From Escherichia phage Ec_Makalu_002, in sequence record MN709127.1: 64,000 bases of DNA; one strand, 5' to 3'. A program made the position numbers and the translations under genes. The notes beneath the pieces were generated by a model that was not told the origin of the DNA, made no database searches, and saw nothing but the letters and a program-made list of their open reading frames with translations. Positions 3,149 to 62,472 of this stretch are shown here, one piece after another. Each line of letters starts with the position of its first letter. Position 1 is the first letter of the stretch.

Positions 3149-3182
3149 TATTAAATCCTCATAAAAGAAAAGGGAGACTCCC

Positions 3183-3210
3183 ATTATAGAGAATCTCCCT
3201 TGTATGTCAA
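3183..3210 (-). promoter_or_regulatory. sigma70-like promoter (TTGACA-N16-TATAAT) overlapping palindrome GGGAGACTCCC
   Basis: minus-strand reading immediately downstream of topoisomerase stop. Confidence 0.5.
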
Positions 3211-3216
3211 GTGTTT

Positions 3217-5040
3217 TTAGCTACACATCCACTCTTTACGGCGGTCTGAATCTTCGCTATAGAGCAAATCGAATAGCTCTTTATAGTTTTCCGGTAACGT
3301 GATGATCTCCATGACAGGATCATTGATCACGCGATGATAATCTGATTCTGTAAGCGATGCTAACCCTTTGATATATCGAATGTTATAACCTTTGATATTA
3401 TCTCGGTCGTTCTCGAAATCTTCTAGGTCATAATACCATCGAACATCATCACCTTTCTTTGGTTCTGCAATGATAATAGGCGTTTTGATAAACCGGATTC
3501 GTCCATCTTCGAACAATTCAGGCCAACGTGCAAAGAAAGAGATCAGACTAGGCTTAATAGATCCGATCCCGTCAGTATCCGCGTCAGTCATAATCGCAAT
3601 ATTTTTGTATTGCATAACTTCCAATGCATCAACACCAAATTGCAAGCCAGTGATCGCCATGATGTTAAAAATTTCGGCATTCTTAACGATCTTTGCCTCC
3701 GGTTGTTCCCACGTTGTAAGAGTTTTACCTCGCAACGGGAAACCTCCATGTAAATCTTGATCACGTACAGAGATCAGATAGTTGATCGCGGAGTCACCCT
3801 CCGTCAGAAACAGGGTAGTTTCTGCGTCAGTTCCAATAAGGTTAGCTTTAACGTGTTTTGCTACCTTAGCCCGTTTTGCTGCCTTTGCTGCCTTAGTCGC
3901 TGCCGCTTTATCTGCTGCCTCTTTGCGTGCCAGGACTACAGCAATAATAGGCATGATAATGTTTTCTTTCTTAGCAATGACCTTAGCCAGCTTTTTAAAA
4001 TCAAGATCAATGTGACGCTTGATATCACCAGTCGGGTTAGTCAATCGCTCTTTTGTCTGTGAATCAAAGCGCAGGTTAGGCAATTCACGAACAATAAGAA
4101 TACAGGTCAAACCAGACTTAACCGCAGCTTTAGTAACATCAACCTTATATTCTTTCTTGATTCGTTTTACAATCTCTTCACAAAGATCATCTGTCACATA
4201 GTCTACGTGTGTTCCCCCGTTTTTGGTAAACAGACCATTAGCAAAGGATACAGATTTAAAACCTTCACCCTCAACCGCAGGAACTAGGGCAAGTGAAAAG
4301 TTTTTATCTTCAATGACAAACGGATCATCATTATAGAGTTTAGCATAGTCCTTGAACTTGCTAACAATACGTTTACCATTAAACTTAAACGTGATCTTAG
4401 GAAAGATTACGCTCAATGATTGCAGACGATCATGAACGATATCTAAAACAGAGTTGTCCATCATATAGCCTTCGAAGTGATCGAAGTCTGGACAAAATGT
4501 AACCTTTGTTCCTTTTAATTTTGATGGTTTTGATGACCATGTGATATTTTCAGCACCGTTGGTACATTGAACGGTCATTTCTGTTTCACCGTCACAGGTT
4601 ACACCAGTAAACCAATCGCTAAAGAAATTTGACAACGAAGATCCTACGCCGTTCATCCCTTGCGTTAATCGATTGGTATCATCAAAGTTAGATCCGGCTT
4701 TTGTTCTTGTCCATGCGGCGACTGGTTGCGGAATCTGCGTACCCTCTGGGGTAGTGACCATATGTTGAGGAATACCGCGACCATTGTCTGTTACCGTAAC
4801 AATATTGTTTTGGATATCGACGCTAATCACATTGGCAAATTCAAAATTAGTGCGGATCGCCTCATCTACAGAGTTGTCGATGATCTCATCAATGATTTTA
4901 ACCAGTCCAGGAACGTATGAAATTTTTGTCCACTTACCGAACAGGAAACGTTGATGTTCTTCGTAAGTAGTTGATCCTATGTACATTCCTGCACGCTTAA
5001 GGACATGTTCACGATCCGATAAAATGCGGAACTCACTCAT
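3217..5040 (-). CDS. 39: DNA topoisomerase II large subunit, gp39 with gp60 portion fused (GyrB-like)
   Basis: 607 aa; N-terminus MSEF..ILSD.EHV.KR.GMYIGS and DNGRGIP match T4 gp39 from memory; single continuous ORF. Confidence 0.85.
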   Translation of the reverse strand: MSEFRILSDREHVLKRAGMYIGSTTYEEHQRFLFGKWTKISYVPGLVKIIDEIIDNSVDEAIRTNFEFANVISVDIQNNIVTVTDNGRGIPQHMVTTPEGTQIPQPVAAWTRTKAGSNFDDTNRLTQGMNGVGSSLSNFFSDWFTGVTCDGETEMTVQCTNGAENITWSSKPSKLKGTKVTFCPDFDHFEGYMMDNSVLDIVHDRLQSLSVIFPKITFKFNGKRIVSKFKDYAKLYNDDPFVIEDKNFSLALVPAVEGEGFKSVSFANGLFTKNGGTHVDYVTDDLCEEIVKRIKKEYKVDVTKAAVKSGLTCILIVRELPNLRFDSQTKERLTNPTGDIKRHIDLDFKKLAKVIAKKENIIMPIIAVVLARKEAADKAAATKAAKAAKRAKVAKHVKANLIGTDAETTLFLTEGDSAINYLISVRDQDLHGGFPLRGKTLTTWEQPEAKIVKNAEIFNIMAITGLQFGVDALEVMQYKNIAIMTDADTDGIGSIKPSLISFFARWPELFEDGRIRFIKTPIIIAEPKKGDDVRWYYDLEDFENDRDNIKGYNIRYIKGLASLTESDYHRVINDPVMEIITLPENYKELFDLLYSEDSDRRKEWMCS

Positions 5041-45069: not shown

Positions 45070-45849
45070 TTACACGCGAGCACCATAGATCGTGCCTACT
45101 TTATCCCAGCGAGGGGCATTGCCAGTAACAGCCTTACCAGCCGCCCCGCCATTATATTCCGATCCCTGTCCACGGATATTACATTTACCACCAGCACCAC
45201 CAGCATCACCACCGTTACCGCCATTATATACACCGTTGACAGACCCTTTACCTGGCGCGGAAATAGTACCAGCAGTAGCACCCCGTTCCATATTAGCAGA
45301 CCCGCCAGCAGCACCAAACGGACGACCACCGCCACCACCAAAGGTTAATTTCATTTGTGACATAGGAGACCAGTATCCGCCGCCACCGCCGCCACCGCCA
45401 CCGCAAATAGCGCCGTTATTTGTGATGCGTAAGCGTGTGCCTATACCGTTGTTAATTGCATTACCACCAGCACCACCAGCGGAGTTATTGCCACCATTAC
45501 CACCACGCCCCCAAACATGAACACCGGGGTTAATGATCAATGTTACATATTCGTTTGTTAACGAGCTAGGGAAGTCAAGACAAGGAACGCCAGTAGAATG
45601 GGAAACAATATTACCTGTGATAGTAATTACTACCGGAGTAGATCCTTGTGCTTTCATCCAGTTAATAAGAGTGTCTTTATTGTAAGAGTTACTAGCACCA
45701 ATGCTATAATGAATCTCTTTAGAGCGTCCGACCATCGCTGACATATACGCCGGACGGCCTAAGCGTACAGCTTGCATTGCGGCGCTCATCCACCGTTGAC
45801 CTGTTTCTGATACGGCAGATGAACCGACCCACCCAGAAGATATTGCCAT
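45070..45849 (-). CDS. glycine-rich adhesin-like protein (gp38-type receptor-recognition protein?)
   Basis: 259 aa; GWVGSSAVSETGQRWMS N-terminus then glycine-rich motifs (GRGGNGGNNSAGGAGGN, GGGGGGGGGYW, GGGGGRPFGAAGG) alternating with variable segments, as in T2-type gp38. Confidence 0.55.
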   Translation of the reverse strand: MAISSGWVGSSAVSETGQRWMSAAMQAVRLGRPAYMSAMVGRSKEIHYSIGASNSYNKDTLINWMKAQGSTPVVITITGNIVSHSTGVPCLDFPSSLTNEYVTLIINPGVHVWGRGGNGGNNSAGGAGGNAINNGIGTRLRITNNGAICGGGGGGGGGYWSPMSQMKLTFGGGGGRPFGAAGGSANMERGATAGTISAPGKGSVNGVYNGGNGGDAGGAGGKCNIRGQGSEYNGGAAGKAVTGNAPRWDKVGTIYGARV

Positions 45850-57957: not shown

Positions 57958-58143
57958 TCAGAAATATGCAATATAGTTTGCCAGCCCTACAGAGTCATCA
58001 TTCGGCATTGCTTTTACCGCCAGTTCAAACCCTGCTTCAACTTTCTGTTTAGCGGATTCTTCGTTATAACCCCAGATTACCAGAATAGCTACTACGTTTT
58101 CTTTGCTTACTGCTTTCAGTGCTTTAGTGATGCGACGTGCCAT
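57958..58143 (-). CDS. hypothetical protein
   Basis: 61-aa ORF. Confidence 0.4.
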   Translation of the reverse strand: MARRITKALKAVSKENVVAILVIWGYNEESAKQKVEAGFELAVKAMPNDDSVGLANYIAYF

Positions 58144-58189
58144 AATTTGATTCTCCGTTTAAGAAAGTGTGTTTCGTTTCGATGGGTGT

Positions 58190-58218
58190 ATTATGCTATA
58201 GGCCGGATCTGGTGTCAA
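58190..58218 (-). promoter_or_regulatory. sigma70-like promoter (TTGACA-N17-CATAAT)
   Basis: directly follows terminator; CATCGAAACGAAAC box. Confidence 0.55.
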
Positions 58219-58242
58219 CAACTTTTTTAAAAAAATTTTAGG

Positions 58243-58271
58243 CAATAAAAAAGCCACTCCGAAGAGTGGCT
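58243..58271 (-). terminator. rho-independent terminator
   Basis: minus strand AAGCCACTCTTCGGAGTGGCTTTTTTATT. Confidence 0.65.
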
Positions 58272-58419
58272 TATAGGGAAGGTAGCGAATCTTCCTTGTC
58301 TCCAACCTGCTAGCGGCCTAGCAAGTGAATGCTTTAGCGTACCGGATCGCCCATACGCTGCAATAAATGCGGCTAGGTGACGTCCAAATCATTCTAACCG
58401 CGCTGTCTTTAGTTCACTA

Positions 58420-58638
58420 TTATTTATATCGCTTTCTCTCGCGACGTTTTTGATCTTCTTCCTTGATAGAGTTAAATGCATCAAAAAGACACATGACACT
58501 AATAATAAACATAACCGTATTTTCTACGATATCCCACGGCTTCGCATCAGTACAGATCCCCCAAACGGTAAGAAATGCAAATAAGGCAGAAGAGATCACA
58601 AGCATGATACTTGCTAAGACATAAAAGGTCATCTTCAT
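58420..58638 (-). CDS. small membrane protein
   Basis: 72 aa; hydrophobic core, basic tail. Confidence 0.45.
   Translation of the reverse strand: MKMTFYVLASIMLVISSALFAFLTVWGICTDAKPWDIVENTVMFIISVMCLFDAFNSIKEEDQKRRERKRYK
58421..58428 (-). promoter_or_regulatory. T4-type late promoter core TATAAATA
   Basis: exact motif overlapping upstream stop, heading a 148-nt non-coding stretch. Confidence 0.4.
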
Positions 58639-58829
58639 GGTTTTACCTCAATTCTTCGATATTCATCACACATCCATGCAGTAAGCAAGAATCCCAACAC
58701 ATAAGCAACAAAATACGTTAATGCTTCTTCTGGTTCGGTGCTATGCGCCATCATCAGACCAGCGAGAAAGGTCTTAACAATTACATTTAAAATAATTAGC
58801 CACGCAAATAATTTCATCGTTTGCCCCAT
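58635..58829 (-). CDS. small membrane protein
   Basis: 64 aa hydrophobic. Confidence 0.45.
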   Translation of the reverse strand: MGQTMKLFAWLIILNVIVKTFLAGLMMAHSTEPEEALTYFVAYVLGFLLTAWMCDEYRRIEVKP

Positions 58830-59053
58830 TTCGGTCGAGTCTTCTCAAACTTATACATTCCGTGACAATCTCGAATCATCCACGTAACAAGAGCACCACT
58901 CAACACCGACAGCACACAGAAGAAGTAAAACGGTCCGGTTGCATTATCAACATGAGCAAGCCATGTAAAGAATACACATGCTAAGAATGTAAAGAACATC
59001 ATAAAACACAAGAAAGCAAAATATTTTATGCTACTCATATCGCCACCATACAA
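58814..59053 (-). CDS. small membrane protein
   Basis: 79 aa hydrophobic. Confidence 0.45.
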   Translation of the reverse strand: MYGGDMSSIKYFAFLCFMMFFTFLACVFFTWLAHVDNATGPFYFFCVLSVLSGALVTWMIRDCHGMYKFEKTRPKWGKR

Positions 59054-59141
59054 CAGATCATAAGAAACCCAAACGCAATAAGAATTGCATCAAATTTAGT
59101 GAACTCCGGTCCACCTATCAACATCATTCGTTCCTGTTCAG

Positions 59142-59339
59142 TCATAGATCACAGATCCATCTAAAAGCACCACATACAGCGATCAGGAGTGTAGGAACAC
59201 TTGAGAAGAAAACCAATGTACAAAAATCATCTAGTGTAATACCGGAATAACTACCGACTGCAATCACACCGATGATCAGACACAGAAAGAAAACAAATGC
59301 AATCAGAAACAAAGTATTGCTAAACAGTTTAGTGATCAT
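59142..59339 (-). CDS. small membrane protein
   Basis: 65 aa hydrophobic. Confidence 0.45.
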   Translation of the reverse strand: MITKLFSNTLFLIAFVFFLCLIIGVIAVGSYSGITLDDFCTLVFFSSVPTLLIAVCGAFRWICDL

Positions 59340-59733: not shown

Positions 59734-59762
59734 ATCTTACTACCCCCGTTTCATGTTGTCAA
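59734..59762 (-). promoter_or_regulatory. sigma70-like promoter (TTGACA-N17-TAAGAT), hairpin GGGGGTA..TACCCCC
   Basis: minus-strand reading. Confidence 0.45.
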
Positions 59763-62283: not shown

Positions 62284-62472
62284 TACTGATTCCTCAAATG
62301 AAAATATTTATTAACAATTGTCGCTTTGCGACGTGCCGTAGGCACTGACTACTTTTTAACCGAAACAAATTTTTATTATTCTAAAGATCTTTCTTCGTTT
62401 TGGTTATGTTTTAACCAATAACTATATTTTTATACAGTAATAAATAAAACGGGTACTATACGAGGACTTCTT

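Follow-up and report, generated by a model that had tools for sequence, protein, structure and literature searches.

What is encoded in the largest internal gap between the genes of a stretch of Escherichia phage Ec_Makalu_002? The analysed sequence (MN709127.1) comprised 64,000 nucleotides (nt), referred to here as the window, whose numbering is used throughout, and represents a T4-type coliphage of the Krischvirus (RB49/Phi1/JSE) type. The gap (58144-58419, 276 nt) was the largest internal stretch without an open reading frame (ORF) of at least 50 amino acids (aa) in six frames. Within it, a 148-nt body on the minus strand (58272-58419), hereafter the element, was found to be non-coding and to lie between the stop codon of a 72-aa ORF and a strong intrinsic terminator. 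A first-pass annotation, made from the letters alone, had proposed that it might be a small late RNA or a long structured leader. Our reading, to which we assign a probability of roughly 45%, is that the element is a previously undescribed, single-copy structured non-coding RNA specific to Krischvirus, formed early as the 3′ end of the dmd transcript and late as a ~170-nt RNA, and binding a partner. That it is a functional non-coding element is well supported, and that it is a late trans-acting RNA is weakly supported.

The 1-kb region around the element matched 58 phage records at 97-99% identity, all of them Krischvirus (RB49, Phi1, JSE, GEC-3S and relatives), and blastn placed the element as a single copy in 58/58 (96.8-100% identity). 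The RB49 counterpart lies between ORF118c and ORF117c. No RNA was annotated at the element in any of the Krischvirus records. Further Krischvirus-like copies (about eight) were recovered from public metagenomes and assemblies (loci L003, L005-L009 and L059-L061).

Four relatives (RB49, L003, L005 and L007) were compared with the window, the element being counted outside hairpin H2 (119 positions). The RB49 neighbouring genes differed at 10.5% of third codon positions and 4.3% of first and second positions, while the element differed at 0/119. The corresponding values were 18.1%, 6.4% and 1/119 for L003, 17.5%, 6.4% and 3/119 for L005, and 14.6%, 4.5% and 1/119 for L007. The gene immediately upstream showed 14-20% divergence in these relatives. 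Most of the element is thus held more tightly than the neighbouring proteins, which argues against a neutral relic, and the comparison indicates that selection keeps its sequence almost invariant. The last ~30 nt of the 72-aa ORF (58420-58449) were conserved along with the element, so that the conserved block begins near 58449.

The folding analysis predicted four hairpins (H1 to H4; Table 1) ahead of the strong terminator. The 148-nt body folded at −49 kcal/mol (z = −2.5, with 3/200 shuffles as good). With the terminator included, z was −4.5 to −5.0 (0/200 shuffles as good), and the predicted late RNA, with its complete terminator, reached −63.6 kcal/mol (z = −5.0, 0/200 shuffles as good). 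The segment 58251-58400 (150 nt, terminator included) had the lowest minimum free energy (MFE) of 1277 overlapping minus-strand windows of 150 nt, and was sixth when the MFE was corrected for GC content. Its GC content (0.51 versus a mean of 0.40) was itself among the highest 0.7% in the window. A minus-strand RNA is indicated by the numerous G-U pairs and by the terminator, which works in one direction only, on the minus strand. A closing stem or pseudoknot between the 5′ UAGUGAA and the H4 loop UUCGCUA was present in the MFE fold. This pairing was not relied on because both of its strands are invariant and an RNA with the predicted late start would lack most of the 5′ strand, and because one locus (L059) lacks the 5′ strand and another (L060) has a different H4 loop.

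Nearly all of the variation was located in H2, where 1-2-nt loop insertions or deletions (indels) were seen and both loop length and sequence varied. In the H1 region the stem was invariant, with one C/U change in the loop. In the lower stem of H2 an A-U pair became G-U, and the neighbouring G-C pair became G-U in L005/L006 and A-U in L003/L009; in the apical stem of H2 a G-U pair became G-C in JK32. One A-to-G change in H4 converted A-U to G-U and kept the pair. Across eleven distinct sequences, 99.8% of cells in the predicted stems were paired, versus 30-43% with the partner column slid, and the sole unpaired cell was in RB49, beside an H2 loop indel. The base substitutions counted in the predicted stems all kept a standard pair, including one double change. 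These pair-preserving substitutions weakly suggest selection for pairing.

No protein-coding function was indicated by the reading frames. The element has stops in all six frames, and the longest ORF with an ATG start was 24 aa (58318..58392). A 48-aa ORF with a TTG start (58159..58305) begins in H3 and crosses the terminator and the promoter; it is annotated in some GenBank records, and this annotation looks spurious. The only small ATG ORF ranged from 15 to 40 codons in different phages, being shifted by the 1-2-nt indels of H2. Small coding sequences (CDSs) labelled 'hypothetical protein' were also noted over H4, the terminator and the early promoter in the Delraymugoa and SSG23 records (L055 272-418, plus strand; L052 329-430, minus strand), and these are almost certainly false gene calls.

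The search for known RNA families was likewise negative. ARAGORN identified no transfer RNA (tRNA) or transfer-messenger RNA in the whole window, in agreement with the published statement that RB49 lacks tRNA genes. An Rfam 15 scan of the window gave 0 matches at the gathering threshold and no tRNA; the same scan recovered all 8 tRNAs in the T4 locus. The best sub-threshold matches in an E-value scan of 58100-58550 were 23.9 bits (cut-off 100) and 22.8 bits (cut-off 47), and were driven largely by the portion spanning H3, H4 and the terminator. The T4 RNAs RNAC and RNAD have no Rfam family either, so the negative Rfam result says nothing about kinship with them.

The description of the stretch as structured, non-coding and not a tRNA was borne out by the negative ARAGORN and Rfam searches, the ORF broken by indels, conservation above that of the flanking genes and stem changes that keep pairs. 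The three stem-loops that had been named correspond to H1, H2 and H3 of the predicted fold, and the terminator was as strong as described (9-bp stem, UUCG loop, U6). The statement that no ORF exceeds 23 aa was nearly right for ATG starts, where the longest is 24 aa, but a 48-aa TTG ORF starts inside. Negative Rfam and tRNA searches coupled with a lack of conserved structure had been named as grounds for abandoning the proposal; the searches were indeed negative, but conservation was strong. The covariation check that had been suggested for related phages yielded pair-preserving changes in H2 and H4, but only one double change, with the other helices invariant.

Table 1. Coordinates of the features at and around the element in the window
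Feature	Position	Strand	Remarks
Upstream ORF, 72 aa (RB49 ORF118c)	58420..58638	−	Ends TAT-AAA-TAA; TAA at 58420-58422
TATAAATA, T4-type late-promoter motif	58421-58428	−	Overlaps codons Tyr-Lys-stop; predicted late start near 58415
Three in-frame stops in a row, UAA-UAG-UGA	58414..58422	−	Read from sequence; end of the 72-aa ORF, directly before the structured RNA
5′ single-stranded linker GAACUAAAGACAGC	58402..58415	−	14 nt; invariant except one G/A or single-base-deletion polymorphism
Hairpin H1, GCGGUUAG/CUAGCCGC	58369-58401	−	8 bp + 4 bp with internal loop; apical loop UUGGAC
Hairpin H2, AGCGUAU/GUACGCU	58336-58359	−	7-bp lower stem; GG(G)/(U)CC apical stem
Hairpin H3, UUCACUUGCUAG/CUAGCAGG.UGGA	58301-58329	−	12 bp, one bulged U, GCCG loop; invariant
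Purine-rich linker GACAA and hairpin H4	58277..58300	−	GGAG spans 58300-58303, overlapping the H3 3′ end
Hairpin H4, GGAAG/CUUCC	58277-58295	−	9-nt loop AUUCGCUAC; fourth stem
Intrinsic terminator	58243..58272	−	9-bp stem 58251-58272, UUCG loop, U6 tail; stem-loop half of PeSL cassette
AT-rich tract and early sigma-70-type promoter	58190..58242	−	TTGACA 58213-58218, CATAAT 58190-58195; promoter half of PeSL
Next ORF, 61 aa, Pfam DUF7421	57958-58143	−	Driven by the PeSL early promoter

The nearest early promoter upstream of the element was located near 59762, by both the GEC-3S annotation and a promoter scan. The early unit that begins at ~59762 contains ORF124c, dmd and five small ORFs and runs to the terminator of the element, which is thus the 3′ end of the dmd operon. 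Its last gene is the 72-aa ORF, which encodes two predicted membrane helices and a basic tail; the protein fell into only 6 clusters, with identities of 82% or more throughout. The unit preceding the dmd unit contains Acb1 (gene 57B). The next gene has an early promoter of its own beyond the terminator, and the stretch is therefore a 3′ end rather than a leader. The proposal of a long structured leader was accordingly not sustained, no alternative antiterminator structure having been found, and a riboswitch reading was rejected on the same two grounds.

The region 58190-58272 is a PeSL cassette as described for RB49 and Phi1 (Arbiol et al. 2010, PMC2839356), with a terminator stem-loop, an AT-rich tract and a near-consensus early promoter. 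It has the defining parts of a PeSL, namely a 9-bp stem with U6 and TTGACA-17-CATAAT (11/12 matches), and the GEC-3S record annotates a terminator and a promoter at this position. The structured body (58277-58415) falls outside the PeSL definition. Unlike a PeSL (PMC2839356), the element has a 148-nt body, upstream of the cassette, and is single-copy; it is mentioned in neither of the two PeSL papers.

Two observations were made on the neighbouring genes. Between dmd and the element, four or more small ORFs in a row (65, 79, 64 and 72 aa; window 58420-59339, minus strand) were hydrophobic and membrane-protein-like, and in relatives the divergence jumped from 1% to 20% between adjacent ORFs, which is suggestive of allele swapping. 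The DUF7421 gene (57958-58143, minus strand) had homologues with 72-80% identity in ~110 T1-like siphoviruses of E. coli and Shigella and none was seen in T4; it is a small gene cassette common to unrelated phage families. T1-like phages have this gene in common with the window, but blastn detected the element in Krischvirus records only.

Searches beyond these records were also negative for the body of the element, which had no blastn match in phages outside Krischvirus. Among 5,426 E. coli genomes and 72,556 plasmids, blastn matched the generic terminator hairpin and nothing else, and an origin from the host or a plasmid was rejected on this result. The exact H1 pattern had 0 matches in 185,579 bacterial and archaeal genomes. 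When IMG/VR was scanned with the upstream ORF, the H1 block and a motif pattern, nothing but Krischvirus loci and chance matches came up, and one metagenome scan with the H3 block returned 3 contigs, all Krischvirus. A candidate second copy at window 3168-3293 (model R2 match, E = 0.83) was rejected, as this is an early promoter with a ribosome-binding site and not a paralogue. At the end of one contig (L060, OQVL01013596.1), the last 49 nt, equivalent to the window below 58290, track the window to GGAGAC and then continue as unrelated sequence, in which a GGAA/UUCC hairpin can still form but neither the H4 loop nor the terminator is present. This end is either a recombination junction or a contig-end artefact.

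T4-type late-promoter motifs are recognised by gp55. RB49 late promoters use (T/A)ATAAATA. The exact TATAAATA that the first-pass annotation had seen overlapping the upstream stop was found there. The motif was depleted in the window (2 copies versus 5.4 expected), and the copy at the element was kept in 13/14 distinct variants, although the overlapping codons could vary. As in a T4-type late unit, the exact TATAAATA is present and is placed at −13 to −6 of the predicted start. A late start at the element is, from its sequence, plausible.

The other copy (48433-48440, within 48400-48467, minus strand) was located in the loop of a hairpin, CCCCAGAU...AUCUGGGG, whose 3′ arm overlaps the ribosome-binding site of a 100-aa ORF (48097..48399) just downstream of the ORF at 48468..49064. 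In T4 gene e, the ribosome-binding site is masked in the early read-through transcripts and becomes accessible in the late transcript. Because the arrangement matches that of gene e, the copy at 48433-48440 is very likely a working late promoter.

Early in infection, the element would be made as the 3′ end of a ~1.5-kb transcript that extends from the promoter near 59762, through dmd, to the terminator. Late in infection, it would be made alone, as a ~170-nt RNA starting about 6 nt after TATAAATA. With its stable hairpins and terminator it may accumulate as a small stable RNA, whether by processing of the early transcript or by initiation at the late promoter. As the stems and the single-stranded linkers are both invariant, the most likely mode of action is the binding of a specific partner, protein or RNA, by the invariant loops and linkers, and not merely a block to exonucleases. 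The H1 loop and the ACAAGGAAG stretch contain GGA motifs that resemble CsrA-binding sites and are a candidate feature. The more specific proposal, that the element is a trans-acting phage RNA which is abundant late and titrates or redirects a host or phage factor (CsrA, ProQ, Hfq, a ribonuclease or an RNA-sensing defence system), is in our estimate unlikely; the region also encodes Dmd (anti-RnlA/LsoA) and Acb1 (anti-CBASS).

Several findings weigh against the reading of the element as a structured RNA with a late form and a partner. One metagenomic Krischvirus contig (L059, MAVA01000028.1), 98% identical to the window, lacks TATAAATA through a 14-nt deletion (equivalent to window 58417-58430), and the rest of the element is unchanged; its tandem stops are also lost and the ORF ends at the TAA inside ACUAAAG. 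The late promoter may therefore be dispensable, at least in L059. The earlier suggestion of a small late RNA thus remains plausible on sequence grounds, given the motif kept in 13/14 variants and the evidently functional second copy, but it is tempered by the loss of the motif in a locus that is otherwise intact. No Krischvirus transcriptome paper was found in the literature searched. The z-score of the body alone was modest (−2.5), and the opposite strand folded almost as well (−45.6 kcal/mol, z = −2.2). The covariation was thin, with a double change in one pair only, which was probably a single event, and the covariation score was reached by 30/500 shuffles. Apart from the single H4 change described above, H1, H3, H4 and the terminator never vary and so are silent on pairing, for or against. 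The genomes are mosaic, with some coding patches also near-identical, and recombination history could explain part of the conservation. Complementary 10-12-mer targets in the window were at chance level (24 10-mer matches versus about 20 expected).

The strongest competing explanation is a 3′ untranslated region that acts only in cis, in which the hairpins shield the dmd-operon mRNA from 3′ exonucleases or set its processing, by RegB at GGAG or RNase E at the AU-rich linkers. We regard it as rather unlikely. Such a stabilising or processing module accounts for the position of the element, which closes an early transcription unit immediately ahead of the terminator, and for the variant without TATAAATA, as L059 keeps the body intact, which is expected if early read-through is what matters. 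It does not account for the invariant unpaired sequence, as an exonuclease barrier needs stable stems and not near-invariant loops and linkers. None of the other PeSL terminators checked was preceded by such a long structured stretch, the gap at the element being the largest ORF-free one, and the other annotated terminator in the GEC-3S region examined was located ~8 nt from the stop of the upstream gene. With regard to processing, GGAG is cleaved by RegB in early transcripts of T4, and a regB gene is present in RB49. The invariant GGAG and A-rich run between H3 and H4 are a possible RegB site with a partial consensus match only; the context of this GGAG fits the strong RegB consensus GGAGRAYARAA at ~4/7 downstream positions, and the GGA is partly paired in H3. 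The AU-rich linkers could be RNase E sites.

A second alternative arises from comparison with T4, whose transcribed strand carries, in this order, 57A, 57B, ipI, trna.4 to trna.2, eight tRNAs, rnaD, rnaC and a terminator. The order in the window is 1-57A-57B-...-element, with the element ~1.9 kb downstream of 57B, in a slot without tRNA. In Hadassahvirus, Tulanevirus and Biquartavirus the tRNA cluster also lies downstream of genes 1, 57A and 57B (1-8 kb when T4 is included). The element is thus positionally equivalent to the T4 slot for tRNAs and stable RNAs. Homology of its sequence to that region is treated as a lead.

The ~45 nt between rnaC and the terminator in T4 read CACUUGCC..GCAGGUGGA..GACAAGG, and this T4-type trailer shares with the element collinear motifs, the same stem as H3 (CACUUGC/GCAGG(U)UG) and the linker that follows it. 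In Tevenvirinae the trailer is conserved on its own, after rnaC in Tequatrovirus, after a sequence resembling the rnaD 3′ end in Dhakavirus and after a protein-coding gene in Gaprivervirus. We also noted that an unannotated module of ~80 nt is nearly invariant across these three groups. It consists of the hairpin CACUUGC/GCAGGUG, AACC-CCGACAA-GGUU, a variable hairpin and a terminator with a GAAA loop (L010 1326-1408, minus strand; L046-L048 1499-1581, plus strand; L019, L020, L025, L038, L040 and L045), and in most of these loci it is followed by TATAAATA.

It could accordingly be proposed that the element is a remnant or diverged counterpart of the T4-type cluster of tRNAs and stable RNAs downstream of 57B, with its 3′ half homologous to the rnaC/rnaD trailer. 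The shared slot downstream of genes 1, 57A and 57B in a window without tRNA, and the stem and collinear motifs common to the trailer and to H3 with its linker, are in favour of this, as is the finding that the element was the top Smith-Waterman location in the window for a T4-type consensus query under four scoring schemes. The scoring margin was small (26 versus 25; 13 versus 13), and the query was chosen after the resemblance had been noticed. Three covariance models were searched, in both directions. The full model of the T4-type trailers gave the element 8.4 bits (E = 1.2, rank 10), and the core model gave no match to it with E up to 10, so these models do not single out the element. The Krischvirus model found no match in the T4-type and other Straboviridae loci. 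Local alignment of the element with T4 rnaC, rnaD and trailer was not significant, and blastn with T4 rnaC and trailer returned no Krischvirus record among the best 60 of 804 matching records. Furthermore, GACAAGG occupies a hairpin loop and 3′ arm in the T4 types, as opposed to the linker and 5′ arm in the element, and a decaying relic is not expected to outdo neighbouring genes in conservation. We consider this origin quite improbable.

The reading as a Krischvirus-specific structured RNA can be set against known RNAs of the same general kind. Like T4 RNAC (species 1, 139 nt) and RNAD (species 2, 119 nt), the element is small, structured and non-coding, and lies downstream of 57A/57B and before a terminator; RNAC and RNAD are classed as late RNAs. 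The bodies of RNAC and RNAD showed no similarity to the element at the level of sequence or model. RNAC has a tRNA-like T arm and is processed from a tRNA precursor, whereas the element lacks any tRNA-like arm, and tRNA genes are absent from the phage. The T4-type trailer also stands at the end of a transcription unit with an H3-like stem, GACAAGG and a terminator next to it, and in Gaprivervirus it too directly follows a protein-coding gene. It differs in that model-based homology tests were negative, the structural context of the motif is not the same and the trailer is ~45 nt versus ~150 nt for the element. Stable hairpins, short AU-rich linkers and a terminator shared with the upstream mRNA are also features of bacterial small RNAs that are derived from 3′ untranslated regions or have multiple hairpins, such as ColE1 RNAI. 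The latter was a weak Rfam match of the element (22.8 bits, E = 0.046), far below the gathering score.

A site acting at the DNA level, that is, an operator for a dimeric protein (TGCTAG-N4-CTAGCA), an extended PeSL recombination site or a replication-related site, was judged highly improbable. In favour of such a site, the hairpins are palindromic as DNA, the fold of the other strand is almost equally stable, the element has three copies of CTAG, a rare sequence in the window, and the adjacent PeSL is a known recombination substrate. The G-U pairs of the stems would be A-C mismatches on the other strand, and two of the observed changes pass via G-U states, which is sensible only for a minus-strand RNA or a single strand. 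In addition, the element is single-copy, whereas PeSLs are repeated, and it tolerates indels in the H2 loop with pairing kept. A micro-peptide of 15-24 aa from the AUG at 58392 (MIWTSPSRIY...) is scarcely credible, for although about the first 10 codons are identical in all variants, they lie within the invariant H1, the start codon is paired inside H1 and has no Shine-Dalgarno sequence upstream, and the C-terminus and length change with every H2 indel (15 to 40 aa).

Three observations concern the composition of the window. The tetranucleotide CTAG was avoided (101 found, 227 expected), and three copies were located within 58243-58431, in the arms of H1 and H3. The most GC-rich island was at 45071-45840 (0.53-0.59 versus the mean of 0.40). 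The second-largest internal ORF-free gap (62284-62472, 189 nt, ~0.27 GC) folded better than its composition predicts (z = −2.5).

A review of 2010 stated that no trans-acting regulatory RNA or riboswitch from T4 had been functionally characterised and that the roles of RNAC and RNAD were unknown, and in a study of 2022 these two were still RNAs of unknown function. The element is a new candidate for a small structured RNA of the RNAC/RNAD kind, specific to RB49-like phages and formerly unannotated. It merits annotation as a non-coding feature, as several GenBank records now place spurious small CDSs over it. Being single-copy, almost invariant and strongly folded, in the equivalent slot of the tRNA-less RB49 group, it is a clean and genetically tractable candidate. 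RB49-like phages are widely isolated for therapy and easily engineered, and a deletion of the element can leave every gene intact. Since it adjoins the anti-defence genes dmd and acb1, a role in phage-host conflict is testable. If the trans-acting proposal were true, no regulatory or decoy RNA of a T4-type phage would have been assignable to a function before the element, which would also provide a handle on the purpose of the RNAC/RNAD slot of T4.

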